Origin: Clostridia bacterium
GTDB taxonomy: Bacteria; Bacillota; Clostridia; Oscillospirales; CAG-272
Length of the DNA stretch: 64,000 bases
Direction of reading: 5' to 3'
NCBI GenBank assembly: GCA_017502875.1
Contig: JAFVUF010000012.1
Span: 168,952-232,951 of the forward strand
Position numbers and translations under genes: made by a program. The notes beneath the pieces are model-generated. The model made no database searches, had not been told where the DNA came from, and saw nothing but the letters and a program-made list of their open reading frames with translations. Every line of letters begins with the position of its first letter. Positions within the stretch are counted from its first letter, which is position 1. Positions 1 through 64,000 of the stretch are shown here, piece by piece.

Positions 1-98
1 GGAGGAGTTTTACGGAGAAATACGCGCTTTCTAAAGAAAGCTGAGCAAAGACTTTTGTATAACCCCACCTCCGCAAAAACGGAGGCGAGGTTATATAT
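1..98 (+). repeat. Family-B hairpin repeat B1, head-first on + strand (left edge may be cut by window start)
   Basis: GGAGAAATACGCGCTTTCTAAAGAAAGCTGAGCAAAGACTTTTGTATA, then 13-bp-stem hairpin (AACCCCACCTCCG / CGGAGGCGAGGTT), then TATATA; same layout as other B copies. Confidence 0.8.
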
Positions 99-8077: not shown

Positions 8078-8310
8078 TCGAGCGCCGCTAAGTCGAGGTT
8101 CGCTACGCTACGCTAAGACTTAAACAGAAGTTCATAGTATTTAGAAGTTTTTGCCAAGCTTTTTTCAAAAAGCTTGCGCCGTCAAGACCGCGTAGGTCTT
8201 GTCGTCCGTCGCAACGGACGAAATACTCTTATCGACCTTTTCTTTTTGTTACTTTTTCTTTGGGGTCTGCTTCTGACCAAAGAAAAAGTTATCGCTCCGC
8301 AGGCGCGACC
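8078..8310 (-). repeat. Family-A repeat A3 (left inverted repeat of the 8349-8890 cassette)
   Basis: GCTAAGTCGAGGTTCGC..AGAAGTTTTTGCCAAGCTTTTTTCAAAAAGCTTG..GTCGTCCGTCGCAACGGACGA..CTTTGGGGTCTGCTTCTGACCAAAG..ATCGCTCCGCAGGCGCGACC. Confidence 0.85.
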
Positions 8311-8347
8311 AAAACAAAAACAGCAAGCACTGAAAAATCGCCTGCTG
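8311..8347 (-). terminator. Intrinsic terminator of the 68-aa gene
   Basis: On minus strand CAGCAGGCGATTTTTCAGTGCTTGCTG stem-loop followed by TTTTTGTTTT. Confidence 0.6.
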
Positions 8348-8894: not shown

Positions 8895-9064
8895 GGCTCG
8901 CACCTTCGGAGCGATAACTTTTTCTTTGGTCAGAAGAAGACCCCAAAGAAAAAGTTACAAAAAGAAAAGGTCGAAGGGAGAGTTTCGCTCTCTGCGGAGA
9001 GCGAGGAGGGCTACTCGCCCGTCCACCTCGCAAGCTTTTTGAAAAAAGCTTGGCAAAAACTTCT
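8895..9064 (+). repeat. Family-A repeat A4 (right inverted repeat of the cassette)
   Basis: GGCTCGCACCTTCGGAGCGATAACTTTTTCTTTGGTCAGAAGAAGACCCCAAAGAAAAAGT..CAAGCTTTTTGAAAAAAGCTTGGCAAAAACTTCT; first ~80 nt nearly identical to the reverse complement of the A3 inner end. Confidence 0.85.
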
Positions 9065-9116
9065 CTCTATCAAATACGCCGCTTTATTAACAAAATGTAA
9101 ATTTACCCACCCCCTA

Positions 9117-9145
9117 TTGACAAAGCGGTTTTAATATGCTATACT
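9117..9145 (+). promoter_or_regulatory. Sigma-A-type promoter of rplJ-rplL
   Basis: TTGACA, 17-nt spacer, TATACT. Confidence 0.6.
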
Positions 9146-9149
9146 AATC

Positions 9150-9334
9150 AAGTCAAACAAACCAAAGACAGTAGGTTTAAGTAATAATTCAGCTATGCCG
9201 AATTTCCTACCGAGGCGAAAAGACACGGACAAAATAGCATAATTTTTCGTTATGCCCAAGGTACGTATATTTTTCAGTTCTCGGTCGCCGAAATCGGTTA
9301 TCGGGATTTTTTATTTGCCTACGAAAAATCTGTT
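9150..9334 (+). promoter_or_regulatory. Probable L10 (rplJ) ribosomal-protein leader
   Basis: ~185-nt structured untranslated leader between promoter and rplJ, ending in a hairpin plus TTTTTT; assignment is by position, I cannot verify the covariance model by eye. Confidence 0.4.
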
Positions 9335-13983: not shown

Positions 13984-14997
13984 TTAGTTTTTATAAATCC
14001 CGAATCTAACGGTGGCGTAACCGAAGGCAAGCGCAAGTAAAATCACGCCGACAATCTCACCCGCAACCGAGATATTGAGAGTTACCGCTATCCCGACAAG
14101 CACTATCGCGTATACGTACATAATAGCTACGGCAAGTTTCTGTCCGTATCTTTCGCATAAGCGGTGATGAACGTGCTTCTTGTCTCCGCAGAAAATGCTC
14201 TGCTTTGACATAAGTCTGCGTATAATGGCGAATGACGTGTCAAACACAGGCAGTCCAAGAATCGCAAGCGCCGTAAAGGCGGAAAGCGTGTAGCCCTCAA
14301 CTGTCGGCGAGGAAAATACCGACTCGCAAAGCATTGCGGTAAGCATAAATCCAAAGAACATCGAGCCCGCGTCCCCTAAAAACGTCTTTGCGGGATTTGC
14401 GTTGTGAGGAAGGAAGCCAAGCGCCGCGCAAAGCAGGGTAAGCGCTATCGCAACCACGTTTCCGTCATAGAAAAGGAACGATACGAGCGCTATTCCACCG
14501 CACCCGAAAATCGCGATTCCGGTGCAAAGCCCGTCTACGCCGTCTATTAAATTGATAATATTCGTTACCGCGATAACCATAAATACAGTAACGGGATAAG
14601 CAAAAATCCATAGGTCAAACGTAACGCCGAAAAGCGTTATAAACTGCGCCGTAACGCCAAACGCGCAAAGCGCCACGCCCGCTAAGGCTTGTCCGAGTAT
14701 CTTTATCATCGGTTTAAGACCGAATTTGTCGTCAAGCATGCCTACGGTAACGATTATCAGTCCGCCAACTATGTAAGGAAGCGCCTCAAAGAAGTAACCC
14801 GTAACGCTTATAGCGATAGAAAACGCGAGAAATACCGCTGCTCCGCCAATTCGTGGGGTGGCGTCCTTGTGCATTCTTCGCTCGTCCTTCGGTATGTCCA
14901 TAAACCCTAAAACAGGCGCAAGTCTTATCGCCGGGAACGTCAGTCCAAATCCCAGCCCTAACGCTATTACACATGCTATTAATGTATATAGTTCCAT
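13984..14997 (-). CDS. Glycosyltransferase family 4 (MraY/WecA/TagO-like undecaprenyl-phosphate sugar-1-phosphate transferase)
   Basis: Polytopic membrane protein; DIPKDERRMHKDATPRIGG motif; start trimmed to MELYTL (ATG 14997) because the upstream 43 codons translate repeat B3. Confidence 0.75.
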   Translation of the reverse strand: MELYTLIACVIALGLGFGLTFPAIRLAPVLGFMDIPKDERRMHKDATPRIGGAAVFLAFSIAISVTGYFFEALPYIVGGLIIVTVGMLDDKFGLKPMIKILGQALAGVALCAFGVTAQFITLFGVTFDLWIFAYPVTVFMVIAVTNIINLIDGVDGLCTGIAIFGCGGIALVSFLFYDGNVVAIALTLLCAALGFLPHNANPAKTFLGDAGSMFFGFMLTAMLCESVFSSPTVEGYTLSAFTALAILGLPVFDTSFAIIRRLMSKQSIFCGDKKHVHHRLCERYGQKLAVAIMYVYAIVLVGIAVTLNISVAGEIVGVILLALAFGYATVRFGIYKN

Positions 14998-15016
14998 TTT
15001 ATACCCTTTCGTTAAA

Positions 15017-15105
15017 GAGATACGCGCTTTCTTGAAAGAAAGCTGCGCAAAGAACTTTTGTATACTCGTTGCTCCGCACAAGCACGAAGCAACAAGCATA
15101 TATAG
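15017..15105 (+). repeat. Family-B repeat B3, head-first; head ~20 nt from the GT4 start codon
   Basis: GAGATACGCGCTTTCTTGAAAGAAAGCTGCGCAAAGAACTTTTGTATA plus hairpin CTCGTTGCTCCG/CGAAGCAACAAG plus TATATAG. Confidence 0.9.
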
Positions 15106-15240
15106 TTTTTTCGTGGCTTTTTCCAAAAATATACATTCCCTTAAACAATAAGATTATCACAAAAGGGAACGAAAAATAAATCGCAACGTGAACTTTAAAT
15201 GAGTTATCGCTTTTGAAGAAGTTACATCATTTGAAAAAAC

Positions 15241-15334
15241 TGTGTAAGGATATATAATCGATGCTTCGTATATATGCGAGGCATCGATTATACAGAAGTC
15301 TTTGCGCAGCTTTCTTCAGAAAGCGCGTAACCCC
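15241..15334 (-). repeat. Family-B repeat B4, tail-first; head ~20 nt from the trpS stop codon
   Basis: TATATAATCGATGCTTCGTATATATGCGAGGCATCGATTATACAGAAGTCTTTGCGCAGCTTTCTTCAGAAAGCGCGTAACCCC. Confidence 0.9.
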
Positions 15335-15353
15335 TTCAAGCGCGATAATCCCT

Positions 15354-16352
15354 TTACAGTCCAACGTAACCGATTTTTCTGTGGACCTTAGAGATAGTTT
15401 TACGAGCGATATAATTTGCGCGCTCGGCTCCGTTTTTCATAACGTCCTCAAGGTACTTTTTATCCTTCATCAAGGCGTCGAATTTCTCACGGAGAGGCGC
15501 GAGGCAATCGGCAACAGTCTCACCGACGGCGAGCTTGAAATCTCCGTAGCCCTTGCCCTCAAACTCACGCTCGATAGCCTCAAAGTCCTTACCCGTAAAG
15601 CAGGAATATATGCTCATCAGGTTGTTTATTCCGTCCTTGCCCTCGGCGTAGCGAACAACGGTATCGCTGTCAGTTACCGCGCGCCTGAACTTACGGATAA
15701 TGTCATCACGGGAATCGAGAATACCGACGGAGGCGTTTGGATTTGCGTCCGACTTGCTCATCTTCTTGGTAGGCTCCGCAAGCGACATTATCTTCATACC
15801 CGTCTTTGCGATATAGCCCTCAGGCACAGTAAACGTGTCGCTGTAGCTGTTATTGAAGCGAGTAGCGATATCGCGCGCAAGCTCTAAATGCTGGCGCTGG
15901 TCCTGACCGACGGGAACGAGGTCCGCCTGATAAAGCAGAATATCCGCCGCCATAAGCACAGGATAGGTAAAAAGACCGGCGTTTATGTTGTCCGCGTGCT
16001 TTAAGCTCTTGTCCTTGAACTGCGTCATTCGAGAAAGCTCGCCGAACATCGTGTAGCAGCCGAGGTCCCACGCGAGAACCGCGTGCGCGGGCACGTGGCT
16101 CTGTACGAAAAGGGTGTTCTTTTCGGGGTCAAGCCCTGCCGCCATATAGACCGCAAGCGTCTCGTAGGTACGGGCGCGAAGCTCCGCGGGCACCTGGCGC
16201 ACCGTTATCGCGTGCATATCAACTACACAGTAAATGCAGTTGTATTCATCTTGAAGCGCAGTCCAGTTCTTTATCGCTCCAAGATAGTTTCCTATCGTTA
16301 AATTTCCGCTCGGCTGAACTCCCGAGAATATCGTTTTCTTCTGTTGTTCCAT
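15354..16352 (-). CDS. trpS: Tryptophan--tRNA ligase
   Basis: 332 aa; class I motifs (GVQPSGNLTIGNY, KMSKS). Confidence 0.95.
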   Translation of the reverse strand: MEQQKKTIFSGVQPSGNLTIGNYLGAIKNWTALQDEYNCIYCVVDMHAITVRQVPAELRARTYETLAVYMAAGLDPEKNTLFVQSHVPAHAVLAWDLGCYTMFGELSRMTQFKDKSLKHADNINAGLFTYPVLMAADILLYQADLVPVGQDQRQHLELARDIATRFNNSYSDTFTVPEGYIAKTGMKIMSLAEPTKKMSKSDANPNASVGILDSRDDIIRKFRRAVTDSDTVVRYAEGKDGINNLMSIYSCFTGKDFEAIEREFEGKGYGDFKLAVGETVADCLAPLREKFDALMKDKKYLEDVMKNGAERANYIARKTISKVHRKIGYVGL

Positions 16353-16380
16353 GGTGTACCCTTTCTAAATTTGTACAAAA

Positions 16381-16467
16381 GGGATTACGCGCTTTTCGAG
16401 AAAAGCTACGCAAAAGCTTCTGTACGACGAAGCCGCACCCCACGGGGTATCGCTTCGTCATATGTAG
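16381..16467 (+). repeat. Family-B repeat B5, head-first; head ~29 nt from the trpS start codon
   Basis: GGGATTACGCGCTTTTCGAGAAAAGCTACGCAAAAGCTTCTGTAC plus hairpin GACGAAGC../..GCTTCGTC plus TATGTAG. Confidence 0.85.
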
Positions 16468-16604
16468 TTTTTATAGCTTTCACAAACACCGTACCGCTTC
16501 TATACATACCTGAATAGGTATAAAACGGAACGGAGAATGATATATCTCATTGTTAGATAAGATTGATAAGCATTTTTGCAGGAATTACGGAATTTTTGAA
16601 AACC

Positions 16605-16741
16605 GTGTAAGGATATATAATCGATGCTTCGTATATATGCGAGGCATCGATTATACAAAAGTCTTTGCGCCGACGTTTGCAAAGCAAACTCGTAAGAAAA
16701 CTTTAGTTTTTAAAGCTTCTCTTCAGAAAGCGCGTAACCCC
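16605..16741 (-). repeat. Family-B repeat B6 (extended variant), tail-first; head ~23 nt from the rimO stop
   Basis: Same tail hairpin as B4, then GCGCCGACGTTTGCAAAGCAAACTCGTAAGAAAACTTTAGTTTTTAAAGC insert, then TTCTCTTCAGAAAGCGCGTAACCCC. Confidence 0.9.
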
Positions 16742-16763
16742 TTCAAAACGCTAATCACTCTTA

Positions 16764-18101
16764 TTATTTCCCAATTTGAGCTATTTCGCAAACGAGGTCA
16801 TAGTCAATGGCGTCTGTAATAACGACGTCAACCATATCCCCCGGTGCGAAGGCGTTTTTCGGAGCGCCGACGAGATAAAGCTTCCCGTCGATTTCGGGCG
16901 CCTCCTTTTCGGTGCGGCAGAAATAGCTGTCGGAAACGGGGTCGTAGCCCTCGACCATAGCAATCTCTCGTTTACCAACACGCGCGGAATTTATCCTCTC
17001 GGCAATTTTGTTCTGCTGCTTCATTACGGCGTCGTAACGGCGCTTTTTCTTCTGCTCCGGCAGATGACCGTCAAGCTTTTCGGCAGGCGTACCCTCCTCT
17101 TTTGAGTAGGTAAACGCCCCGAGGCGCTCAAACTTAGTATCGGCAAGATAATTTATCAGCTCCTCAAACTGCTCGCCCGTCTCACCGGGAAAGCCGACGA
17201 TGACCGTGGTGCGAATGATGATACCGGGACAAGCCTTTCTAAGTCTTGCAACGGCGTCCTCGATAACCGCGCGTCCGCCGTGTCGGTTCATTCTTTTCAG
17301 AACCCCGTCGCTGATGTGCTGAATAGGCATATCTATGTATTTAACAAGCCTGTCGTTGCTTCTGAACTGCTCGCAAAGCCCGTCGGTTATCTTGTCAGGG
17401 TAGCAGTAAAGCACCCTTATCCACGGAATATTCGTTTCGTCGGTTATGCGCTGAATAAGCATATCAAGCTTAAAATCTCCGTAAATATCTAACCCGTAAC
17501 GCGTGGTGTCCTGCGCCACAAGTATAAGCTCGCGTACGCCGAGCGCCTCCATATCCTTTGCCTCGGCAATAAGCTCCTCGATAGGTCTTGAACGGAACGC
17601 GCCGCGAATATCGGGGATAGCGCAGTAGGTGCAGCGGTTGTCGCAGCCCTCGGCTATCTTCATATATGCGTAATGCTCAGGCGTGGTTACTATACGGTCT
17701 CCGCCAAGCGCCGCCTCCTCAGGCTTTTTCAGCACCGAAAAGCGCTCGCCCTTCACAACTCTTTGAACAACACTTACAACGTCGTGAATAGCGCCGACTG
17801 ACATTATGGCGTCAACCTCGGGGAACTGTGCGAGTATCTCGTCGCCGTATCTCTGCACGAGGCAGCCGCAAACAACAAGCTTTTTAAGCCTTGCGTTCTC
17901 TTTAAGCCACGCAAGGTCGAGAATGTTGTCAATCGCCTCCGTTTTGGCGTCCTTTATGAAGCCGCAGGTATTCAGAATGATTACGTCAGCCTCGGTCTCC
18001 TCGGCGCATATCTCGTAACCCGCGGCGTTTAATTCACTTAACATTACCTCAGTGTCAAGCTGATTTTTAGGACACCCAAGGCTTACAAATCCTACTTTCA
18101 T
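16764..18101 (-). CDS. rimO: Ribosomal protein S12 methylthiotransferase RimO
   Basis: N-terminal VSLGCPKNQLDTE, radical-SAM CDNRCTYC, C-terminal TRAM domain; start trimmed to MKVGFV (RBS GGAGATG). Confidence 0.8.
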   Translation of the reverse strand: MKVGFVSLGCPKNQLDTEVMLSELNAAGYEICAEETEADVIILNTCGFIKDAKTEAIDNILDLAWLKENARLKKLVVCGCLVQRYGDEILAQFPEVDAIMSVGAIHDVVSVVQRVVKGERFSVLKKPEEAALGGDRIVTTPEHYAYMKIAEGCDNRCTYCAIPDIRGAFRSRPIEELIAEAKDMEALGVRELILVAQDTTRYGLDIYGDFKLDMLIQRITDETNIPWIRVLYCYPDKITDGLCEQFRSNDRLVKYIDMPIQHISDGVLKRMNRHGGRAVIEDAVARLRKACPGIIIRTTVIVGFPGETGEQFEELINYLADTKFERLGAFTYSKEEGTPAEKLDGHLPEQKKKRRYDAVMKQQNKIAERINSARVGKREIAMVEGYDPVSDSYFCRTEKEAPEIDGKLYLVGAPKNAFAPGDMVDVVITDAIDYDLVCEIAQIGK

Positions 18102-18126
18102 AGATACATCTCCAAAAAGAGTTTTC

Positions 18127-18290
18127 ATTCTTTCTTAAAAGAAAGAATCAAAGAACTTCTCTTACAAGCGAGGACGCTTTGTAAGAGCAAATCTTCGGCT
18201 TTTAAGCTTTTTCGTCCTCGCTTGTAAGAGAAAGCACTTGATTTTCTCTCACAAAACTATGAGAACACTTCAAAAGAACTAACCCAAAAA
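18127..18290 (+). repeat. Family-B-like repeat B7 (variant head), head next to the rimO start
   Basis: ATTCTTTCTTAAAAGAAAGAATCAAAGAACTTCT plus long hairpin CTTACAAGCGAGGACG../..CGTCCTCGCTTGTAAGAG; second small hairpin follows. Confidence 0.7.
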
Positions 18291-18925: not shown

Positions 18926-19477
18926 TGTCGTGCCGACAGCACGATGACTTTTTCTTTTGGAAGAAGCAGAGCCATTTAACCTCGAATTCGCTCTGCGACA
19001 AACAGTAAGCCGCAGCTTTGCTTCGCATAGACGCAAATTCTGGCAGATGACTGAGATTAAGTGTAAATTCAAGTAACAAAAAGAAAGGCTCGGTAAAAGC
19101 ATGTCGTCCGTTACGACGGACGACAAGACCTACGCGGTCTTGACTGCGCAAGCTTTTTGAAAAAAGCTTGGCAAAAACTTCTAAATACTATGAACTTCTG
19201 TTTAAGTCTTAGCGTAGCGTAGCGAACCTCGACTTAGCGGCGCTTGAAATGCTCGACGTTCTCAAAAGCACGCGCCGCCATTTGCCCCCGGGCGCGCGCC
19301 CGGTGAAAAAGGTGGGCGAAAACTTTTTTAACACTGTGAACTTCTGTTTAAGCCTTAGCATAGCGTATCGAACCCCGACTTAGCGACCTTCGACGTGAAA
19401 CGCCCAGATTAAACGGTCGCCTTTTTGCCTCCAGGCGCTCGCCTGGCGCCGCAGTTTCGCCGCAGGTCGTTACCTGC
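18926..19477 (+). repeat. Family-A composite A5 (about two elements; first hairpin arm replaced by a 97-nt segment)
   Basis: All A modules in order, ending GCCGCAGGTCGTTACCTGC at 19459-19477, directly abutting the recA stop (19478). Confidence 0.9.
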
Positions 19478-24535: not shown

Positions 24536-24666
24536 TATATATAATCGACGCATCGTGCTTTTTACGAGGCGGCGATTATACAGAAGCTTTTGCGCCGACG
24601 TTTGCAAAGCAAACTCGTAAGGAAACTTTAGTTTCTAAAGCTTCTTCTCGAAAAGCGCGTATCCCC
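24536..24666 (-). repeat. Family-B repeat B9 (extended variant), tail-first; head ~38 nt from the gyrB stop
   Basis: TATATATAATCGACGCATCG..CGAGGCGGCGATTATACAGAAGCTTTTGCGCCGACGTTTGCAAAGCAAACTCGTAAGGAAACTTTAGTTTCTAAAGCTTCTTCTCGAAAAGCGCGTATCCCC. Confidence 0.9.
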
Positions 24667-24703
24667 TTAGAAAGCCTGCGTTTACTCCTATTACCCCCAA
24701 CCG

Positions 24704-26839
<2,136 letters not shown>

Positions 26840-26930
26840 TCAGTTGGGTTTATTAAATTTTTATTGGATAGATATGATGTTGTGAGGTAGGTGAACGTTC
26901 TTTTGATTAAATCTACGAAATAATTCTTTT

Positions 26931-27037
26931 GCGCCGATAGACAAAAGCGATCATAGTTTAGCCTTGAACTAATATTAAGTCTATCGGTGTAAAAGAAGTT
27001 TTTGCGCAGCTTTTTTCAAAAAGCGCGTATTCCCCCC
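26931..27037 (-). repeat. Family-B repeat B11, tail-first; head overlaps the DUF370 stop codon
   Basis: Hairpin GCGCCGATAGAC../..GTCTATCGGTGT then AAAAGAAGTTTTTGCGCAGCTTTTTTCAAAAAGCGCGTATTCCCCCC. Confidence 0.85.
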
Positions 27038-28543: not shown

Positions 28544-29131
28544 GTGCCTGTTGGCACAAGCTTTTTGAAAAAAGCTTGACCAAAACTTCTCTTACGGGCT
28601 GCCGCCCAACACTTAACAAACACTTACTCTGTTTAAAATCTTTACAAGGAAGCCGTAGGCTTTAACTTAGCGGCGCTCGAAATGCTCAACGTTCTCAAAA
28701 GTACGCGCCGCCAATTCGCCAACGGGGGCGTCCCCGGTCGCCGCAGGCCGTTGCCTGCCGTCGCCATTTGCCTCCAGGCGCTCGCCTGGCGCAATGACTT
28801 TTTCTTTGGGAAGAAGCAGAGCCCAAAGAAAAAGTAACAAAAAGAAAGGCTCGTTTGGGATATTTCGCTCTCTGCGGAGAGCGACAAGGCTCCGCGCCTT
28901 GACTGCGCCGCCTTTTGAAAAAGGTGGGCGAAAACTTCTAAGCATTGTGAACTTCTGTGCAAACCTTAGTGTAGCGAAGCGAACCTCGACTTAGCGGCGC
29001 TCGAAATGTTCGACGTTCTCAAAACTACACGCCGCCATTTGCCTCCGGGCGCTTGCCTGGCGCCGCCATTTGCCTACAGGCGCTTGCCTGGCGATTGCCA
29101 TTTGCCTACAGGCGCTCGCCTGCCGATTGCC
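28544..29131 (+). repeat. Family-A composite array A6 (at least two elements plus extra CCAGGCG hairpin units)
   Basis: GTGCCTGTTGGCACAAGCTTTTTGAAAAAAGCTTG..; GCAGGCCGTTGCCTGC variant hairpin; second full module series; three tandem GCCATTTGCCT(C/A)C(A/G)GGCGCT(T/C)GCCTGGCG units; overlaps the degV 3' end. Confidence 0.9.
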
Positions 29132-35076: not shown

Positions 35077-35164
35077 TTTTCCGGCTTTCTTGAAAGAAAG
35101 CCTCGGCAAAGAACTCTGTACACCGCCAGCCCCCAATTTTATAGGAAACTGTCGGTGTATATAA
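35077..35164 (+). repeat. Family-B-like repeat B13 (variant head), head-first; ~17 nt after the ftsK stop
   Basis: TTTTCCGGCTTTCTTGAAAGAAAGCCTCGGCAAAGAACTCTGTACACCGCCAGC..CTGTCGGTGTATATAAT. Confidence 0.8.
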
Positions 35165-35342: not shown

Positions 35343-35471
35343 CTATATAATCAATGCTTCGTATATATGCGAGGCATTGATTATACAAAAGCTTTTGCGC
35401 CGACGTTTGCAAAGCAAACTCGTAAGGAAACTTTAGTTTCTAAAGCTTCTTCTCGAAAAGCGCGTATCTCC
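35343..35471 (-). repeat. Family-B repeat B14 (extended variant), tail-first; head ~30 nt before the DJ-1 start
   Basis: TATATAATCAATGCTTCGTATATATGCGAGGCATTGATTATACAAAAGCTTTTGCGCCGACGTTTGCAAAGCAAACTCGTAAGGAAACTTTAGTTTCTAAAGCTTCTTCTCGAAAAGCGCGTATCTCC. Confidence 0.9.
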
Positions 35472-35500
35472 TTCTACCAAAACGTTGAAAGGAAAATCAT

Positions 35501-36046
35501 ATGATATATATTTATTTAGCGCAGGGCTTTGAGGAAACGGAGATGATATTTCCTCTCGACCTTATGCGTCGCGCGGGACTTGACGTAAAAACCGTATCGG
35601 TTACGGGCGAGCTTAACGTAACCGGCTCACACGGCATAACCGTAAAGGCGGACATGCTGGTAAGCGACCCAAGCTACGACCTGTCAGACGTCCAGCTCGT
35701 TATGCTTCCGGGCGGAATGCCGGGCACGATAAATCTCGAAAAAAGCGCAGAGGTGCAAAAGGCGATACGCTACGCCTACGACAGCGGCAGATACATTGCC
35801 GCTATATGCGCCGCCCCCCTCGTTCTCGGAAACGCTGGACTGCTTAAAGGAAAAAAGGCGGTGTGCTACCCGGGCTTTGAAAAGTACCTTGCGGGCGCCG
35901 AAAACCCCGCCAACAGATGCGTAACGGACGGAAAAATAATCACGGCAGTCGGCTGCGGCGCGGCGGCGGAGCTTGGCTTTGCTATAATAACCGAGCTTTG
36001 CGGCGCGCAGACAGCGGAGAGTATAAAAAATGGAATTCTCGCATAA
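35501..36046 (+). CDS. DJ-1/PfpI-family protein
   Basis: 181 aa; nucleophile elbow AAICAAP; DJ-1/ThiJ-like throughout. Confidence 0.85.
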   Translation: MIYIYLAQGFEETEMIFPLDLMRRAGLDVKTVSVTGELNVTGSHGITVKADMLVSDPSYDLSDVQLVMLPGGMPGTINLEKSAEVQKAIRYAYDSGRYIAAICAAPLVLGNAGLLKGKKAVCYPGFEKYLAGAENPANRCVTDGKIITAVGCGAAAELGFAIITELCGAQTAESIKNGILA

Positions 36047-37772: not shown

Positions 37773-37981
37773 GGGGATACGCGCTTTATGGTGGCGCATA
37801 GCGTTAATGCGCGCCTTAAATTCAATTGCGCCACCATCGAATATTTTTCTTGGTCGGAGCGACCAAGCTTTTGCGCTAAACGGCAAAAGACAAAATATTC
37901 CCATAATCTGTGTAGCCTCCGCTGCGCAAAAGCTTCTGTATACTCGGTCTCCCGCACACGTACGGGACTCCGAGTATATAG
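37773..37981 (+). repeat. Family-B repeat B15 with nested insertions, head-first; 6 nt after the mltG stop
   Basis: GGGGATACGCGCTTT interrupted by a 60-nt palindromic unit (ATGGTGGCGC..GCGCCACCAT, 37788-37847); resumes ..GCTGCGCAAAAGCTTCTGTATA plus hairpin CTCGGTCTCCCG../..CGGGACTCCGAG plus TATATAG. Confidence 0.8.
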
Positions 37982-38110: not shown

Positions 38111-38194
38111 TTATATAATCGGCGTTCCGTGCTTGTACGGTGCGGCGATTATACAGAAGTTTTGCGGAGCTTTTTCAAAAGCGACCGTATCCCC
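38111..38194 (-). repeat. Family-B repeat B16, tail-first; head ~36 nt before the U32 start
   Basis: TTATATAATCGGCGTTCCGT..ACGGTGCGGCGATTATACAGAAGTTTTGCGGAGCTTTTTCAAAAGCGACCGTATCCCC. Confidence 0.85.
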
Positions 38195-39528: not shown

Positions 39529-40866
39529 ATGCAAAACATTACCGAATACGTAAACGGACTCTGCGCCGAGGTCAAAACGGCGCAAAAGGCTCTTGCGCTC
39601 GCAAAAGCAAGCGAAAAAAACGGCGCGCTCCTGAAAATCGCCGAGGCGCTCAGAGAAAGCAAAGCCGAGATACTTAAAGCAAATGAGCAGGACATATCCT
39701 CAGCCTCGGAAAACGGCGTTCCGAAAACAATGATTGACCGACTGACCTTAACCGAGGCGAGAATTGACGCCATTGCTGACTCGCTTCTTGACGTGGCGGC
39801 TCTGCCCGACCCTTGCGGAAACGGCTCTGTTTCAGTCCGTCCAAACGGACTGAAAATAACAAAAACGAGTGTTCCGCTAGGCGTTATCGGTATCATTTAC
39901 GAGGCTCGCCCCAACGTTACGGTTGACGCCGCGGCGCTCTGCCTCAAAAGCGGAAACGGCGCCGTTTTGAAGGGCGGCAAGGAGGCGCTTAACACCAACC
40001 GCGCGCTTATGAGCGTTATGAAAAGGGCGCTTAATCGCACCCGTATTCCGCCAAACGCCATTTCTCTCATCGACAGCGCTGAACGCACGGCAACCGCGGC
40101 GCTTATGAACGCCAGAGGTTTGATTGACGTGCTTATCCCCAGAGGCGGCAAGGGTCTTATCAAGGCGGTAGTGGAAAACGCCGCCGTTCCGGTCATTGAG
40201 ACGGGAGCCGGCAACTGCCATATCTATATCGACGAAAGCGCCGATCTAAAAAAAGCGCTCGCTGTCGCGGTAAACGCAAAAATGTCTCGTCCCTCGGTCT
40301 GCAACGCCGTTGAGACTATGCTCGTTCACGAAGCCGTAGCGGAGAAATTTTTGCCTATGTTCGCAAGGGAAACCGAGGGCAAGCTTGAAATTCGCGGCTG
40401 CAAAAAGACCGTTTCAATTATTAGAGGTTCGATGGAAGTATCGTACAGGGCACCCACATTAGCTGAAAATTCACTACAAACGCCGTCTGTAGCGGTGTCG
40501 CCGTTGCGACAGGGTGCGATAGAAGCCACCGAGCAGGACTACGACACCGAGTTTAACGACTACGTTTTGGCGGTCAGGGTTGTTTGCTCGCTTGACGAGG
40601 CTATCGAGCATATCAGACGCTATTCAACGGGACACAGCGAGGCAATAATTACCGAAAATATTGCTTGTGCGCGTAAGTTCACCGAAAGCATAGACTGCGC
40701 GGCGGTCTACGTCAACGCCTCCACCCGCTTTACCGACGGAGGTGAATTCGGCTTTGGCGCCGAGATAGGCATTTCCACCCAGAAGCTTCACGCCCGCGGA
40801 CCTATGGGTCTAAGCGAGCTTACCACCGTCAAATATATCGTCGAGGGCGACGGTCAAATACGGTGA
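39529..40866 (+). CDS. proA: Glutamate-5-semialdehyde dehydrogenase (gamma-glutamyl phosphate reductase)
   Basis: 445 aa; ProA-like throughout (catalytic region SRPSVCNAVETMLVH); carries a ~29-aa extra segment between ..EIRGC.. and ATEQDYDTEF. Confidence 0.92.
   Translation: MQNITEYVNGLCAEVKTAQKALALAKASEKNGALLKIAEALRESKAEILKANEQDISSASENGVPKTMIDRLTLTEARIDAIADSLLDVAALPDPCGNGSVSVRPNGLKITKTSVPLGVIGIIYEARPNVTVDAAALCLKSGNGAVLKGGKEALNTNRALMSVMKRALNRTRIPPNAISLIDSAERTATAALMNARGLIDVLIPRGGKGLIKAVVENAAVPVIETGAGNCHIYIDESADLKKALAVAVNAKMSRPSVCNAVETMLVHEAVAEKFLPMFARETEGKLEIRGCKKTVSIIRGSMEVSYRAPTLAENSLQTPSVAVSPLRQGAIEATEQDYDTEFNDYVLAVRVVCSLDEAIEHIRRYSTGHSEAIITENIACARKFTESIDCAAVYVNASTRFTDGGEFGFGAEIGISTQKLHARGPMGLSELTTVKYIVEGDGQIR
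40426..40519 (-). repeat. Family-C intragenic element, reverse orientation, in-frame inside proA
   Basis: Reverse complement reads TCGCACCC TGTCGCAACGGCGACACCGCTACAGACGGCGTTTGTAGTGAATTTTCAGCTAATG..CCATCGAACC, colinear with the mnmG/ftsK copies over the first ~65 nt. Confidence 0.75.
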
Positions 40867-40883: not shown

Positions 40884-41000
40884 GGAGATACGCGCTTTCT
40901 TGCAAGAAAGCTGCGCAAAGAACTCTTTTACACCGACAGTCTCATAATTTTGTGAAATTTTTTCGCTCAGCTATGTGAGACTGTCAGTGTAAAAGATAAC
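40884..41000 (+). repeat. Family-B repeat B17, head-first; ~18 nt after the proA stop
   Basis: GGAGATACGCGCTTTCTTGCAAGAAAGCTGCGCAAAGAACTCTTTTACACCGACAGTCTCA..TGAGACTGTCAGTGTAAAAGATAAC. Confidence 0.9.
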
Positions 41001-46944: not shown

Positions 46945-46963
46945 GTTCCGCCCCCAAAAGAGT

Positions 46964-47075
46964 TTTCCGGCTTTCTTGAAAGAAAGCCTCGGCAAAGAAC
47001 TTCATTTACGCCGATAGCCGTTTGTTTTGCTTAAATTTCAGTCTCTTACTCCAAACGGCTATCACCGTAAATAAT
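46964..47075 (+). repeat. Family-B-like repeat B18 (variant head), head-first; ~20 nt after the galK stop
   Basis: TTTTCCGGCTTTCTTGAAAGAAAGCCTCGGCAAAGAACTTCATTTACGCCGATAGCCGTTTG..CAAACGGCTATCACCGTAAATAAT. Confidence 0.8.
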
Positions 47076-48451: not shown

Positions 48452-48535
48452 GGAGAGATACGCGCTTTCTTGAAAGAAAGCTGCGCAAAGAACTCTCTTA
48501 CCGCGACAGCAGGAGCTATCGCGGTAAGAGATAAC
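48452..48535 (+). repeat. Family-B repeat B19, head-first; ~14 nt after the rlmH stop
   Basis: GGAGAGATACGCGCTTTCTTGAAAGAAAGCTGCGCAAAGAACTCTCTTACCGCGACAGC..GCTATCGCGGTAAGAGATAAC. Confidence 0.9.
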
Positions 48536-48689
48536 TCTGTGTATCTCCTTTGAGGAAACTCGGACACTCCTGCCGCTAAACATACTTTTGATATAACCCG
48601 TAATCGATAAAATTAATAAAAATAGGACGTACAGGTTCTTCATTTGGAAAGAAAAACGTCCTTTTAGAAAGAAGTTATCGAAAATTTTT

Positions 48690-48768
48690 ATTAAACCCAA
48701 CTCCTTTTTGAGGGGTTGGGTTTAATACAGAAGCTTTTGCGCAGCTTTTCTCGAAAAGCGCGTATCTC
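48690..48768 (-). repeat. Family-B repeat B20, tail-first; head ~23 nt before the mnmG start
   Basis: Hairpin AAACCCAACTCC..GGGGTTGGGTTT then AATACAGAAGCTTTTGCGCAGCTTTTCTCGAAAAGCGCGTATCTC. Confidence 0.88.
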
Positions 48769-48790
48769 TTTTCAACCGGAAGGAACACAA

Positions 48791-50788
48791 ATGAACGAAT
48801 TTGTAGCAGAGAAGGCGGATATCGCCGTAATAGGAGCAGGCCACGCGGGCGTGGAGGCGGCGCTTGCGAGCGCGAGAATGGGTTTAAAGACCATACTTTT
48901 CACGTTAAGCCTTGACCAGATAGCGAACATGCCCTGCAACCCGTCGATAGGCGGCACAGGCAAGGGACACCTCGTTTACGAGATTGACGCGCTGGGCGGA
49001 GAAATGGGCAGAGCAGCCGACCTTGTAACCATGCAGAGCCGCACCCTGAACCTCGGAAAAGGCCCTGCGGTCCACAGCAAGCGTATCCAGGCAGACCGTA
49101 TGCTCTACCACTCGGTAATGAAGAAAACGCTTGAGGACTGTGAAAACCTGCGGATTATTCAGTCCGAGGTAACCGATTTAGAGGTAACTGACGGCGCTCT
49201 TTCTGCGGTCATCACCCGTCTCAAAGCCAAATACGAGGTCAAGGCGGCGATAATCTGCTCCGGCACATATCTGCGCGGCAGAGTTATAATCGGCGACACG
49301 GCGTACGCCTCCGGGCCTGACGGCTCTCTCCCCTCAGTCGGCTTAAACGAGCGCCTTAGCGAGCTTGGAATTAAGCTTCTCCGCTTTAAGACGGGAACTC
49401 CGCCCCGTATCCACCGCCGTTCAATCGACTTTTCAAGGCTTGAGCGTCAGGACGGCGAGACGGACGTTACGCCATATTCTTACCGTTCCGTCGCACCCGG
49501 TCGTAGCGACGACACCGATAATTACGATGTTTCCACTGATTTTTCAGCTATTGAGGACATTCAAAAAAACGTTTCAATCGCACCCACAAATGAGATTTCT
49601 AATAAAAATCAACCTAATCTCTTCACTCGCCAGACTCCTTGCTACATCGCATATACAAACGAGCGCACCCACGAGATAATCAGACAAAACCTCCACCGTT
49701 CTCCCCTTTACAGCGGAATGATAGAGGGAACCGGACCCCGCTACTGTCCGAGCATTGAGGACAAGGTCGTCCGCTTCTCCGACAAGCCCCGACACCAGCT
49801 TTTTGCCGAGCCGATGGGCTACGACACCGACGAAATCTATCTGCAAGGCTTCAGCTCCTCGCTTCCCGCCGAGGTTCAGCTTGAAATGCTGCACTCCATT
49901 GAGGGCTTCGAAAACGCCGAGGTAATGCGTTTCGCCTACGCCATAGAGTACGACTGCATAGACCCCTCGCAGCTTCTCCCTACGCTCGAATTTAAGGCCA
50001 TCTCAGGTCTATACGGCGCAGGACAGTTCAACGGCACCTCAGGCTACGAGGAAGCGGCGGCGCAGGGACTTATCGCGGGCATAAACGCCGCCTATAAGAT
50101 AAAGGGCGAGCCTCCACTTACTCTCAGCCGTGATAGCAGCTACATCGGAACGCTTATCGACGACATCGTTACCAAGGGCACAAACGAGCCGTACAGAATA
50201 ATGACCTCGCGCTCCGAATACAGACTGCTGCTGCGCCAGAGCAACGCGGCGTTTCGCCTGATGGACGAGGGCAGACGCAGCGGACTGATAAGCAAAGAGC
50301 GCTACGCAAGACTAATTGAGCTAAAAGAGCAGATAAACGCCGAGATTAAGCGTGTTAAAGCCAAAACCGTCGCCCCAAGCGAGAGCTTAAACGCGATCCT
50401 CACCGCCTGCGGCACGACGCCGATAAGCACAGGAGTAAGGCTCAGCGAGCTTATAAAGCGCCCACAGCTCTCATACGAGGCGCTCAGAGAGATTGACGAC
50501 ACATACCTATCCCTTGATAAAACGGTGCGTACAGAGGCTGAAATAATGCTAAAATACGACGGCTACATCGCGCGTCAAATAGAGGACGCGCAGAAAATGG
50601 AAAAGCTTGAAGCAAAGCTTCTTCCGACCGATATCGATTACGAGAAGATAACCGGACTTCGCCTTGAAGCAAGACAGAAGCTGAGTAAGGTTCGCCCGAT
50701 GAATATAGGTCAGGCGAGCCGAATAAGCGGAGTTTCGCCTGCGGACATATCGGTACTAATGATATATTTAAAGGTAAATAAGCTTTAA
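48791..50788 (+). CDS. mnmG: tRNA uridine 5-carboxymethylaminomethyl modification enzyme MnmG (GidA)
   Basis: FAD site VIGAGHAGVEAA, GPRYCPSIEDK; start trimmed to MNEFVAEK (ATG 48791); carries an extra segment between TPYSY and TPCYIAYTNE. Confidence 0.95.
   Translation: MNEFVAEKADIAVIGAGHAGVEAALASARMGLKTILFTLSLDQIANMPCNPSIGGTGKGHLVYEIDALGGEMGRAADLVTMQSRTLNLGKGPAVHSKRIQADRMLYHSVMKKTLEDCENLRIIQSEVTDLEVTDGALSAVITRLKAKYEVKAAIICSGTYLRGRVIIGDTAYASGPDGSLPSVGLNERLSELGIKLLRFKTGTPPRIHRRSIDFSRLERQDGETDVTPYSYRSVAPGRSDDTDNYDVSTDFSAIEDIQKNVSIAPTNEISNKNQPNLFTRQTPCYIAYTNERTHEIIRQNLHRSPLYSGMIEGTGPRYCPSIEDKVVRFSDKPRHQLFAEPMGYDTDEIYLQGFSSSLPAEVQLEMLHSIEGFENAEVMRFAYAIEYDCIDPSQLLPTLEFKAISGLYGAGQFNGTSGYEEAAAQGLIAGINAAYKIKGEPPLTLSRDSSYIGTLIDDIVTKGTNEPYRIMTSRSEYRLLLRQSNAAFRLMDEGRRSGLISKERYARLIELKEQINAEIKRVKAKTVAPSESLNAILTACGTTPISTGVRLSELIKRPQLSYEALREIDDTYLSLDKTVRTEAEIMLKYDGYIARQIEDAQKMEKLEAKLLPTDIDYEKITGLRLEARQKLSKVRPMNIGQASRISGVSPADISVLMIYLKVNKL
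49491..49585 (+). repeat. Family-C intragenic element, in-frame inside mnmG (87 nt plus an 8-nt direct repeat)
   Basis: TCGCACCC [GGTCGTAGCGACGACACCGATAATTACGATGTTTCCACTGATTTTTCAGCTATTGAGGACATTCAAAAAAACGTTTCAA TCGCACCC]; bracketed part = 87 nt = 29 codons. Confidence 0.85.
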
Positions 50789-59707: not shown

Positions 59708-59766
59708 TTCAATATCACAAATCACGGGTCGCTTCGTTTAATACGGGGCGGCCCGATTTCTTTATA

Positions 59767-60269
59767 AAGCTTGGCAAAAACTTCTGAACACTGTGAACTT
59801 CTGTTTAAGCCTTAGCATAGCGAAGCGAACCTCGTCTTAGCGGCGCTCGACGTGAAACGCCCAGATTAAACGGTCGACTTTTTGCCTCCAGGCGCTTGCC
59901 TGGCGCCGCCAATTCGCCGCAGGTCGTTACCTGACGCCATTTGCTTCCGGGCGCTCGCCCGGCGCAATGACTTTTTCTTTGGGAAAAAGCAGAGCCCAAA
60001 GAAAAAGTAACAAAAAGAAAGGCTCGTTTGGGATATTTCGCTCTCTGCGGAGAGCGAGGAGGGCTACTCGCCCGTCCACCTCGCAAGCTTTTTGAAAAAA
60101 GCTTGGCAAAAACTTCTGAACACAGTGAACTACTGTGTAAACCTTAGCATAGCGAAGCGAACCTCGACTTAGCGGCGCTCGAAATGCTCGACGTTCTCAA
60201 AACTACACGCCGCCATTTGCCTCCAGGCGCTTGCCTGGCGCCGCCAATTCGCCGCAGGTCGTTACCTGC
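59767..60269 (+). repeat. Family-A composite A8 (two tandem elements), ending at the mnmE stop
   Basis: Two successive series ..AAGCTTGGCAAAAACTTCT..GCGAACCTCG(T/A)CTTAGCGGCGCTCGA..CCAGGCGCTTGCCTGG..GCCGCAGGTCGTTACCTG(A/C); the last C of the second is the G of the mnmE TAG stop. Confidence 0.9.
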
Positions 60270-61687
60270 TATTTGCCAACGCAGAAATTGTGGAAGATTT
60301 CATTTGTTATCCTGTCAGTAACCGTTCTGCCGTCAAGTAAGCCTATCGCGGCAAGCGCAGCTTCAAGGTCAAGTCCGCAAACGTCCGCGCCCATTCCACA
60401 CTCAAAAGCCGCTATTGCGCGTTTGAGCGCACCCATAGCCTCGCAAACCGCGGAATTCTGCCTTGCGTTAGCTATCACCGCCACACTTCCGTAGTCAACG
60501 TAGCCCTCGCAAAAGAACGCTTCGGCAATGCCTTTAAGCTCCTCAACTCCCTGCCCCGTCTGAGCGCTTATCTTACAGAGCTTCACCCTGTTTTCATCAA
60601 ACGGACGGTTACGGGTTGCGTCATCAAGCGCCTTTTTAACGTCATCAGTATCAAAACGCGGCTCCGTATCGCACTTGTTCAGCGCCAATATCACGCTTTT
60701 TCCGCTAATCACCGCCTCGGCGGCTAAGGAAATAATCTCGCCGTCCTCTTGGTCAAGCGGACGTGAGGTGTCAAGCACAGCGATAATAAGCTCCGCCTCG
60801 TCAGCCTTGGCTCTGGCGCGCTCAATACCTATTTTTTCAACAACGTCGTCGCTTTCACGGATACCCGCAGTATCAAAAAGACGGAGCGTTATCCTGCCTG
60901 CGTTAACCTTCTCCTCAATAACGTCGCGCGTCGTACCCGCAACCGAGGTTACTATCGCCTTCTGCTCACCCGCAAGCGCGTTTAAGAGCGAGGACTTGCC
61001 CGTGTTTGGCTTGCCGACTATCGCCGTATAAACACCCTCGGAGACTGCCTTTCCCTGCTTGTAGGTTGCGGCGGTGGCGCTTAAAAGCCCGTAGATAGCC
61101 TCCATCTCTGCCTTAAAATCCGATTCACTGACCTCCGCTAAATCCTCCTCAGGATAGTCAAGCTTGACGTAAACGGACGAAAGAAGCTTAATCAGACGCT
61201 CGCTTATCTCATCGCACCTTTTTTTAAGCACCCCTGAGGCGTGCGAGGCGCAAAGACGGAGCTTTTCCTCATTTTCGGCGTCGATCAGACCTATTACCGC
61301 CTCAGCGCCCGAAAGGTCGATTTTTCCGTTCAGAAAAGCCCTCTGCGTAAACTCTCCGGGGCCCGCCTGCGTGGCGCCGAGGTCAAAAGCGGTCTTTAAA
61401 ACCCTCTCGGTAAGCAGTATTCCGCCGTGGCAGCTTATCTCAACGATGTCCTCGCCCGTGTACGACCTCGGAGCGCGGAAAACGGTAGCTATTCCGTCGT
61501 CAATGCGCTCGCCGCCGCTGATTATTTTTCCGTAAACGGCGCTGCCGCCCTCAATTTCCGAAAGAGCCGTCCCGCAGCCCGTAATAAACATTTTTTCAGC
61601 TACTCCGAGCGCGTTCTCGCCCGAAATTCTTATTACCGCTATTCCGCCTCTGCCAAAAGGCGTAGCTATCGCCGCTATCGTACTCAT
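60269..61687 (-). CDS. mnmE: tRNA modification GTPase MnmE (TrmE/ThdF)
   Basis: G-domain GKPNTGKSSLLN, DTAGIR; C-terminal FCVGK. Confidence 0.95.
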   Translation of the reverse strand: MSTIAAIATPFGRGGIAVIRISGENALGVAEKMFITGCGTALSEIEGGSAVYGKIISGGERIDDGIATVFRAPRSYTGEDIVEISCHGGILLTERVLKTAFDLGATQAGPGEFTQRAFLNGKIDLSGAEAVIGLIDAENEEKLRLCASHASGVLKKRCDEISERLIKLLSSVYVKLDYPEEDLAEVSESDFKAEMEAIYGLLSATAATYKQGKAVSEGVYTAIVGKPNTGKSSLLNALAGEQKAIVTSVAGTTRDVIEEKVNAGRITLRLFDTAGIRESDDVVEKIGIERARAKADEAELIIAVLDTSRPLDQEDGEIISLAAEAVISGKSVILALNKCDTEPRFDTDDVKKALDDATRNRPFDENRVKLCKISAQTGQGVEELKGIAEAFFCEGYVDYGSVAVIANARQNSAVCEAMGALKRAIAAFECGMGADVCGLDLEAALAAIGLLDGRTVTDRITNEIFHNFCVGK

Positions 61688-61710: not shown

Positions 61711-61797
61711 GGAGATACGGTCGCTTTTGAAAAAGCTCCGCAAAACTTTTGTATCGCAAAGCTCTCCCCGTGGGGAGAGACTTTGCAATATATATAT
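61711..61797 (+). repeat. Family-B repeat B21, head-first; ~24 nt from the mnmE start
   Basis: GGAGATACGGTCGCTTTTGAAAAAGCTCCGCAAAACTTTTGTATCGCAAAGCTCTCCCCGTGGGGAGAGACTTTGCAATATATATAT. Confidence 0.85.
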
Positions 61798-63746: not shown

Positions 63747-63794
63747 TTTGTTAAAATTCCTCTCTAATTGCTTCCGCAGAAGCTCATAATATTT

Positions 63795-64000
63795 AAAAGT
63801 TTTTGCCCACCTTTTTGCAGGCAACGGCCTGCGGCGAAATGGCGGCGCGTGCTTTTGAGAACGTCGAGCATTTCGAGCGCCGCTAAGTCGAGGTTCGCTT
63901 CGCTACGTTAAGATTTACACAGAAGTTCACTGTGTTCAGAAGTTTTTGCCAAGCTTTTTTCAAAAAGCTTGCGAGGTGGACGGGCGAGGAGCCCTCCTCG
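63795..64000 (-). repeat. Family-A repeat A9 (cut by window end)
   Basis: AAAAGTTTTTGCCCACCTTTTTGCAGGCAACGGCCTGCGGCG..CATTTCGAGCGCCGCTAAGTCGAGGTTCGC..AGAAGTTTTTGCCAAGCTTTTTTCAAAAAGCTTG.. Confidence 0.85.

Follow-up and report, generated by a model that had tools for sequence, protein, structure and literature searches.

Repetitive extragenic palindromes (REPs) occur as families with complementary stem subfamilies and frequent G-T pairing, lie less than 20 bp from the 3' end of the upstream open reading frame (ORF), and form inverted dimers (Di Nocera et al. 2013, PMC3733652). Repeats resembling transposable elements of the miniature inverted-repeat type (MITEs) can supply terminators, promoters, and processing sites (PMC10969869; PMC3733652). 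REP-like repeats and their mobilising enzymes have been well studied in Proteobacteria, but hardly in gut Clostridia. Here we analysed a 64-kb stretch of a Clostridia bacterium contig (JAFVUF010000012.1; hereafter the window), which carries at least 15 copies of an intergenic repeat, family B, one of them being the element B14 at 35343-35471. Each copy consists of a conserved head and a tail with a hypervariable hairpin. We show that the tail hairpin is under selection to pair, on the strand read tail-first only, and that this polarity travels with the element regardless of the direction of the neighbouring gene. We thus read family B as a non-coding, multi-copy, modular intergenic repeat of the kind of REPs and bacterial interspersed mosaic elements (BIMEs) or of MITEs, whose hairpin is foldable on one strand, most likely as single-stranded DNA, and we put the probability of this reading at roughly 0.45.

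The tail hairpin of B14

Read head-first, a family-B unit opens with a purine-rich start (rGGrGATACGCGC), continues with a palindrome, a purine run, and TGTATA, and ends in a hypervariable hairpin that closes with TATA. The head comprises the start, the GC-clamped A/T palindrome, and the purine run, as in GCGC-TTTCTT-GA-AAGAAA-GC-T-GCGC-AAAGAA-CTT, and the tail comprises TGTATA and the hypervariable hairpin with its stem of 14-18 bp; additional modules lie beyond the hairpin. The hairpins span 38-44 nt, and some of the part coordinates given here are good to a few bases only. B14, whose plus strand is read tail-first, lies 30 nt upstream of the start of the DJ-1/PfpI gene (35501) and has the following parts.

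35346-35385, plus strand: tail hairpin, stem 16-18 bp
35386-35400, plus strand: CAAAAG-CTTTT-GCGC segment (complement of the purine run, and GCGC)
35401-35449, plus strand: nested 49-nt insert with two mini-hairpins
35450-35471, plus strand: remaining head, TTCTCGAAAAGCGCGTATCTCC

A sequence-only reading of the window had proposed that the tail hairpin is identical in the copies B4 and B6, and that a G-to-A change in the left arm of B14 is matched by C-to-T at the paired position. Indeed, the hairpins of B4 (15253-15292) and B6 (16616-16655) are exactly alike, and in them as in B14 the full stem, TATAATCGATGCTTCG-loop-CGAGGCATCGATTATA, measures 16-18 bp; the sequence that had been given was correct, although the stem had been drawn too short. 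A 34-nt hairpin string matches exactly at 15256-15289 and 16619-16652, and with two mismatches at 35349-35382, with a chance expectation of 0. The sole differences between the hairpin of B14 and that of B4 and B6 are A35353 and T35378, which are G and C, respectively, in the latter. These positions pair with each other, and the A:T pair of B14 thus replaces G:C in a compensatory manner. The three hairpins also have one wobble in common, which in B14 is T35358.G35373 on the plus (tail-first) strand, and the RNA fold of the B14 hairpin reaches -22.7 kcal/mol on the plus strand versus -16.4 kcal/mol on the minus strand.

The wobble positions had previously been counted by eye, and the counts were right within one position: B1 has two, and B4, B6, and B14 have one each, whereas B3 has three instead of two. 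As for the mismatches of other types, the C-C in B10 and the two A-G in B9 were found again, while the inner stem of B8, to which a C-C had likewise been ascribed, was checked by hand only. It was confirmed that B4 and B6 follow the stops of two genes on the minus strand, trpS (15354-16352) and a miaB-like gene (16764-18128), respectively, and that they still wobble on the plus strand.

Wobble polarity and covariation in a larger sample

A scan with the head pattern over one genome per species yielded 66 loci (L001-L066), all from uncultured gut or rumen Clostridia: the Oscillospiraceae SIG673 and CGS10Y1-bin10, the Eubacteriales EPI_MAG_00016, a goat caecum metagenome-assembled genome (MAG), and Flemingiibacterium, Lachnospiraceae, and Christensenella MAGs. 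The closest match to the window in this collection is provided by SIG673 genes, which are ~75-80% identical, and gut metagenome runs contain the window sequence. Contigs encoding close TrpS orthologues added five element-bearing and four element-free loci. A hairpin finder that penalised G.T and A.C equally returned 69 head-adjacent hairpins with 52 distinct stems in 34 sequence clusters, and the genes in the loci were taken from simple ORF calls.

In the clustered counts, 35 mismatch events were A.C on the head-first strand (that is, G.T tail-first), six were G.T head-first, and nine were of other types (binomial p = 4.9e-6). G.T and A.C are thus not equally distributed between the strands, in agreement with the bias that had been suggested from the few window copies. 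Four of the six counter-examples sit at the outermost stem position, and with the outer three stem positions left out, the ratio becomes 52 versus 2 over all copies; the strength of the bias therefore ranges from ~6:1 to 26:1, depending on the treatment of the edge positions. The tail-first G.T polarity recurs in SIG673, EPI_MAG_00016, and the TrpS-linked relatives (three or more genomes). It was also found in both gene contexts, at 29:1 in the copies behind stop codons and 12:1 in those ahead of start codons, which bears out the earlier proposal that the bias follows the polarity of the element and not that of the neighbouring gene. Furthermore, both members of inverted pairs, only a few hundred bases apart, show the same element-bound polarity.

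For covariation, we used two sets of distinct tails, namely 20 of the SIG673 type (class II) and 10 including those of B4/B6 and B14 (class I). Both sides were changed in 11 of the 18 stem pairs in class II and in 10 of 16 in class I, and standard pairs on the tail-first strand made up 100% of the 360 cells in class II and 96.9% of the 160 in class I. These comprise 30 and 12 tail-first G.U cells, respectively (42 in total), whereas at most one cell was A.C. The covariation score was 0.547 in class II, compared with 0.192 after shuffling, and 0.544 in class I, compared with 0.242. None of 500 shuffles reached the observed score in either class, although this control overstates the significance for related sequences. 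When the partner was slid, only 29-52% of the cells were paired in class II and 32-58% in class I, and the stem is secure from these slid controls and from the number of distinct pair types. Strains with TrpS proteins of 89-96% identity carry strongly divergent orthologous hairpins at the B3 and B5 sites, with changes at many stem positions, yet pairing is kept and G.T is again found tail-first.

The folding energies of seven window hairpins show the same preference, the tail-first strand being the more stable one in all seven with RNA and DNA parameters alike. With RNA parameters, the tail-first strands fold at -16.6 to -28.4 kcal/mol and the head-first strands at -9.5 to -19.5 kcal/mol, with a mean gap of ~6.9. 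The corresponding values with DNA parameters are -10.0 to -14.4 and -5.1 to -12.5 kcal/mol, with a mean gap of 3.2.

Such a pattern might in principle arise without any function of a single strand, if template switching at quasi-palindromes restored pairing and the leftover mismatches came from strand-biased deamination. Template-switch correction of quasi-palindromes is an established mutational mechanism and would yield paired changes without selection, and the changes that form G.T tail-first, C>T and A>G, are both of the deamination type. However, the non-hairpin columns of 36 aligned SIG673 copies are balanced, with 21 versus 26 events in the two transition classes (82 versus 85 by sequence). 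The same polarity also appears in both gene orientations and in inverted pairs sharing one replication direction, and in the majority class, the biases usually caused by transcription and replication should presumably have favoured the other strand. We therefore consider a purely mutational origin very improbable. Since there is no transition asymmetry outside the stem and the polarity is present in both gene orientations and in inverted pairs, the bias is best explained by purifying selection, with A.C removed and G.T tolerated on the tail-first strand.

Gene context, insertion and the folded strand

Over all loci, 61 copies could be placed relative to genes, 43 of them behind a stop codon and 18 ahead of a start codon. 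In the stop class, the head lies a median of 15 nt behind the stop and the head-first strand is the sense strand of that gene, while in the start class, the head lies a median of 24.5 nt ahead of the start and the tail-first strand is sense. Consequently, 43 of the 61 placed copies have a foldable strand that is antisense to the gene next to them. In the head-first direction, 33 of the 69 hairpins are followed by a T-rich tract; in the other direction, none is.

The position behind stop codons at this short distance, the one-sided T-rich tract, and the view that REPs act as terminators or stabilisers (PMC3733652) would all be consistent with the mRNA of the flanking gene as the source of the bias, the hairpins having been selected after insertion as terminators or 3'-end stabilisers in the sense of the neighbour. 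In the stop class, however, it is the sense RNA that carries the A.C mismatches (29 A.C versus 1 G.U), and its fold is less stable than that of the antisense strand by 1.2-14 kcal/mol; if selection acted on the mRNA, the polarity should be the reverse of the one observed. Since the foldable strand is antisense to the neighbour in most copies, the flanking mRNA is excluded as the origin of the bias, and we rate this explanation as very improbable. A terminator role is nevertheless possible, and the use of the element as a terminator after insertion is plausible.

In the window, the head of every copy faces the nearest gene end, and inverted pairs with the heads outward are frequent (five or six). 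Within the blocks of co-directional genes, both orientations of the element are about equally frequent, and the usual layout between two such genes is a stop codon, a head-first copy, a spacer, a tail-first copy, a ribosome binding site, and ATG. This stop-to-ATG layout is seen for the pairs B4/B3, B6/B5, B9/B8, B11/B10, and B17/B18, and for the CCGG-head copy at 35077 with B14. The copies in addition to B14 are listed below, each with the strand that is read tail-first.

17-95, minus strand: B1; head ~17-60, hairpin 58-95 with two G.T on the minus strand
15017-15100, minus strand: B3; head 15017-15063, ~14 nt from the start of the minus-strand GT4 gene (ATG ~15003); hairpin 15061-15100, three G.T on the minus strand; forms an inverted pair with B4, heads outward
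15253-15335, plus strand: B4; hairpin 15253-15292, short head to ~15335, ending 19 nt from the stop codon of minus-strand trpS (15354)
16381-16462, minus strand: B5; head 29 nt ahead of the start of trpS (16352); paired with B6 in inverted orientation
16616-16744, plus strand: B6; hairpin 16616-16655, long head carrying the B14-type 49-nt insert, ending 20 nt from the point (16764) where the miaB-like gene on the minus strand has its stop codon
23923-24002, minus strand: B8; head 41 nt from the gyrA start (23882)
24540-24667, plus strand: B9; hairpin 24540-24580, containing two A.G mismatches; the head is long and carries the 49-nt insert; placed after the gyrB stop (24704)
26682-26765, minus strand: B10; head adjoining the gyrB start; partial second head at 26665-26678
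~26925-27035, plus strand: B11; class II tail with a 19-bp stem, a 36-nt loop, and two G.T on the plus strand; head abutting the stop of a remA-like gene (27037)
35077-35160, minus strand: related element whose head is the variant CCGGCTTTCTTGAAAGAAAGCC; its plus strand is read head-first; it follows the ftsK stop (35060) at ~17 nt and shares the ftsK-DJ-1 spacer with its partner B14; a second copy of the element is at 46963-47050
~37921-37980: partial head-first copy, following a yceG-like gene, near B15
38114-38192, plus strand: B15; hairpin 38114-38153, head 38 nt upstream of a peptidase U32 gene (38230)
~40885-40993, minus strand: B16; plus strand read head-first, 19 nt past the stop of the gene at 39529-40866; class II tail with one G.T on the minus strand
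~48455-48528, minus strand: B17; plus strand read head-first, 17 nt past the stop of a SPOUT methyltransferase gene (48438); SIG673-like class II tail
48689-48770, plus strand: B18; hairpin 48689-48727, head upstream of mnmG (ATG ~48803); inverted pair with B17
61712-61792, minus strand: B19; head adjoining the mnmE start (61687), hairpin with one bulged base

The ~50 genes of the window are housekeeping genes only, including queH, ABC exporters, spo0A, trpS, a miaB-like gene, recX, recA, gyrA, gyrB, and recF, as well as ftsK, mnmG, rsmG, parAB, serS, mnmE, jag, and yidC. A short tail-first ORF in one SIG673 copy was considered as a protein-coding region, and this was ruled out by indels among the copies that are not multiples of three. 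The 49-nt insert, CGACGTTTGCAAAGCAAACTCGTAAG.AAACTTTAGTTT.TAAAGCTTC, forms two mini-hairpins and occupies the head linker of B14 (35401-35449), B6 (16671-16719), and B9 (24596-24644), whose tail hairpins differ; in metagenome contigs, the insert reaches a word depth ~20-30 times higher than its flanks, and in the related locus L147, a different insert is found at the same head-linker site. The spacer between B4 and B3 (15150-15215; L147:11180-11240) contains another conserved stem, GTTCCCTT...AAGGGAAC, and in the window it also contains an extended -10-like sequence, TGTGATAAT, pointing towards the downstream gene.

We also observed a second, longer mosaic repeat, family A, with a related head, CAAGCTTTTTGAAAAAAGCTTGGCAAAAACTTCT, whose copies are up to 95-98% complementary across the window and which includes tandem 31-nt GC-rich hairpin units, GCCTCCAGGCGCTTGCCTGGCG, in 13 copies. 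It occupies the following positions.

802-1080: family A
3343-3650: family A
8078-8320: family A
8898-9130: family A
19071-19466: family A
28557-29125: family A
59752-60280: family A
63777-64000: family A

One family-A repeat is immediately followed by a leader of the ribosomal protein L10 type (9144-9322; Rfam RF00557, 47 bits), which lies upstream of rplJ-rplL.

The spread of family B is seen from a comparison with close relatives. In the element-free locus L152, whose TrpS is 90% identical, dnaN, recF, remA, gyrB, gyrA, recA, recX, miaB, and trpS are consecutive with gaps of 0-20 nt, with the exception of the gyrB-gyrA spacer. The miaB-trpS gap is 10 nt in L152 versus 412 nt in the window, where it holds B6 and B5. 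The trpS-GT4 gap measures 29-31 nt in L150 and L151; in the window, L147, and L148, it is occupied by B4, the spacer, and B3 and measures ~350 nt. The heads are absent from L152-L155. Taken together, these gaps show that the family-B elements are insertions, as close relatives keep the operon with gaps of 10-30 nt. In metagenome contigs of the window's organism, the word depth of the repeat segments is ~20-30 times that of the flanks, and in DNA runs of related strains, the contigs break at the repeats. In SIG673, conservation extends several hundred bases past the hairpin as a mosaic of hairpin modules in varying combinations. A metagenome scan based on GyrB returned only homologues of 51-61% identity, all of them without elements. 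Family B has spread within one lineage of uncultured gut Oscillospiraceae-like Clostridia, whose sister lineages are compact. It has split ancestral housekeeping operons (recF, gyrB, gyrA, recA, miaB, trpS) and inflated gaps of 10-30 nt to 350-410 nt, and the repeats break short-read assemblies of the organism and create false ORF extensions. The gyrB-gyrA spacer of L152 (L152:3510-3860) contains many copies of the DnaA-box-like sequences TGTGGAAAA and TTTTCCACA and may represent a replication origin or a DnaA-regulated region.

How the tail-first strand comes to be under selection could be explained as follows. The constraint would be imposed when the element is copied, with the tail-first strand being handled as a folded single strand, most likely of DNA. 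A strand-specific enzyme encoded elsewhere in the genome, either similar to the HUH-type REP-associated tyrosine transposases (RAYTs) or of another type, would recognise this folded DNA. The inserted copies would be tolerated or co-opted: head-first behind a stop codon, the hairpin with its T-rich tract would resemble a terminator, and tail-first ahead of a start codon, it would become part of the leader. The polarity bound to the element, the precedent of the REPs, and the clear evidence of spread speak for single-stranded DNA.

Several points weigh against this reading. No transposase or IS200/IS605/RAYT-type gene was found among the ~50 window genes, and a regular-expression scan for HUH...Y over ~600 kb of several element-bearing genomes gave no HUH/Y1-like ORF, a crude scan in which a single-copy gene is easily missed. 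The REP tag GTAG/CGTC is not conserved, the flanks being (C)TGTA and then T or C in class I, and CTTC and then R-TTTAC in class II. The foldable strands of the two members of an inverted pair are opposite, unlike the layout derived from IS200/IS605; of the earlier suggestion that one strand folds as a single strand, possibly as the substrate of an IS200/IS605-type enzyme, the foldability of the tail-first strand is upheld, and an IS200/IS605 layout does not fit. No target-site duplication or exact element end is readable at the filled and empty sites, where the flanks have diverged, and the elements may have spread between spacers by gene conversion rather than by transposition. Many copies have a common ancestry, so that the event counts are not fully independent. 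In addition, G.T is only weakly tolerated in DNA hairpins, and class II shows two RNA-like features, a conserved tandem U.G/G.U and some UUCG or UGCG loops on the tail-first strand.

The last two points bear on the alternative that the constrained molecule is RNA, a tail-first transcript made from a promoter in or beyond the element's far end, or as the leader of the downstream gene. Its hairpin might then, among other possibilities, stabilise the 5' end, mark a processing site, or belong to a small antisense RNA ending at the head. G.U is nearly neutral in RNA, and the energy gap between the strands is twice as large with RNA as with DNA parameters. The tandem 5'-UG-3'/3'-GU-5' is kept in 12-14 of the 20 distinct class II sequences, some of the tail-first loops being UUCG or UGCG, and for 18 copies, the gene beyond the head, which starts at a median distance of ~25 nt from it, has the tail-first strand as its sense strand. 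B4 also has TTGAAA-16-TATAAT in the tail-first direction (11/12 match), and bovine gut metatranscriptome contigs cover a head at 85-95% likeness. On the other hand, for 43 of the 61 placed copies, such a transcript would run antisense to the neighbouring gene's 3' end, and a sigma-70 consensus match of at least 10/12 occurs tail-first in only one of 15 window copies. TATAAT, where present, forms the base of the left arm, and the start would fall inside the stem, downstream of 35353. An element-internal sigma-70 promoter was convincing only in B4, and no consistent tail-first promoter emerged. There is also no match to an Rfam family: the Rfam 15 scan of the whole window at the gathering threshold gave the L10 leader at 9144-9322 as the sole match, and an E-value scan of 14950-16800 gave nothing below 0.1. 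The RNA runs searched with the element region contained no match, and only the bovine metatranscriptome contigs from distant relatives did so. We regard element-borne RNA as possible but doubtful and slightly favour single-stranded DNA. The wobble polarity provides a sequence-only marker of the strand that is read as a single strand, which makes the question of RNA versus DNA testable here.

The bovine contigs (X25-X28) match the head (window 15017-15058) at 85-95% and then run into unrelated sequence; heads of this family are accordingly present in RNA preparations from other hosts, where they may come from either strand or from carried-over DNA.

The head module and comparison with known repeats

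The head follows a rule of its own. In 150 of 155 heads (window 15026-15058, 35386-35400 with 35450-35466, and all other heads, L001-L066, and L147-L151), the pyrimidine arm has its plain complement in the purine run behind the palindrome, so that this run mirrors the purine arm. All six informative variant classes obey this mirror rule, and none fits a direct repeat.

Pyrimidine arm TTTCTT: purine run AAAGAA
Pyrimidine arm TTTTTC: purine run AAAAAG
Pyrimidine arm TTTTC: purine run AAAAG
Pyrimidine arm TTTTCT: purine run AAAAGA
Pyrimidine arm TTTCT: purine run AAAGA
Pyrimidine arm TTTTCTTT: purine run AAAAGAAA

Watson-Crick pairing of the purine run with the palindrome arms was considered and does not fit, as the relation is one of mirror symmetry only. 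Since a mirror repeat is not homogenised by templated copying, this points to selection on the head. Judged from its segments, the head has the architecture of an intrastrand triplex motif, and the tail-first strand, 5'-UUCUUU-GCGCAGC-UUUCUU-UC-AAGAAA-3', offers an exact U.A-U / C+.G-C register. The element might then be a previously undescribed two-part single-strand device, in which a hypervariable hairpin checked on one strand is combined with an intrastrand triple-helix head, in a new mobilisation system or an RNA stability element; we think this unlikely. If it were true, the device would represent the recognition structure of a new non-RAYT mobilisation system in Clostridia or, alternatively, a bacterial counterpart of the triple-helix RNA stability elements of eukaryotes and viruses. 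The head sequence did not occur in the literature searched.

Two further observations concern the head. Heads are found in tandem, partially or wholly, as in the 23-nt unit AAAAGAGAAATACGCGCTTCACG repeated at 2678-2715, and also at 26665-26678 and in L020, L022, L058, and L063, which suggests that the head module may duplicate on its own. In the start-class copies, the sense strand has UCUCC, CCCUU, or UCCCUUU at the outer end of the head (15003-15030, 16352-16395, 35460-35503, 48760-48805). As far as can be told by eye, this end might base-pair with the purine-rich ribosome binding site that follows 10-25 nt downstream; before trpS, the partners would be UCCCUUU and AAAGGGU.

The triplex arrangement has a described counterpart in the intrastrand triplex motif (Hoyne et al. 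2000; Holder et al. 2015, PMC4666352), with which the head has in common a pyrimidine arm, a loop, a purine arm, a linker, and a mirrored purine run. The known motif is G/C-rich and enterobacterial, however, whereas the head of family B is A/T-rich and attached to a variable hairpin, and its three segments co-vary across subfamilies.

Integron attC sites show little sequence conservation but a conserved imperfect hairpin, lie directly behind a gene, and are folded on the bottom strand, which is antisense to the gene. Family B likewise has a hairpin of little sequence conservation that often lies behind a gene, with the foldable strand antisense to it. In contrast to an integron, however, the window has no integrase, no array of like-oriented cassettes, and no R/L box consensus, and the elements occur in both orientations and flank housekeeping genes (gyrA, gyrB, recA, trpS).

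With the transcribed MITE-like repeats known from Firmicutes and elsewhere (RUP, BOX, bcr1, EFAR, Correia/NEMIS, ERIC), family B shares a non-autonomous nature, a length of 100-200 nt, a position beside coding regions, and stable folds. RUP, BOX, and others have terminal inverted repeats and target duplications but no reported wobble polarity, and the stem of family B is hypervariable between copies. When we checked for terminal inverted repeats, only a weak resemblance of the head to the far end was seen in SIG673 copies, with conservation continuing beyond it, and no duplication was readable. A miniature element derived from IS200/IS605 (PATE-like) would be expected to have end hairpins of the same polarity, whereas the pairs of family B are inverted and their foldable strands opposite.

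The closest resemblance is to REPs, BIMEs, and the paired REPs known as REPINs, which are short imperfect palindromes of high copy number in intergenic positions (PMC3733652, PMC2817692). In Proteobacteria, RAYTs mobilise these elements, and the cognate RAYT is a single-copy gene of the same genome that REPs usually flank. The alternative complementary stem residues, the G-T pairing, and the polarity that defines the element are those of REPs and BIMEs, and so are the position near the 3' end of the upstream ORF (43 of 61 copies in family B, median 15 nt), the inverted dimers, and the mosaic clusters; the mosaic modules beyond the hairpin in SIG673 correspond to the BIME pattern. Family B differs in that it has no GTAG/CGTC tag, that its hosts are Clostridia and not proteobacteria, and that its hairpin is coupled to a conserved head of 45 nt found across several families of Clostridia. 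Unlike a REPIN, the members of a pair carry different hairpins and cannot form one long stem, and no RAYT (Y1 HUH, PF01797) was found among the window genes or in the crude motif scan of ~600 kb. On this comparison, the best reading of family B is that of a new REP/BIME-like family of mosaic repeats, and its host group is one from which such elements have barely been described. Beyond the properties reported for REPs (PMC3733652), family B shows a polarity that is independent of gene direction, while a general mutational asymmetry is absent.

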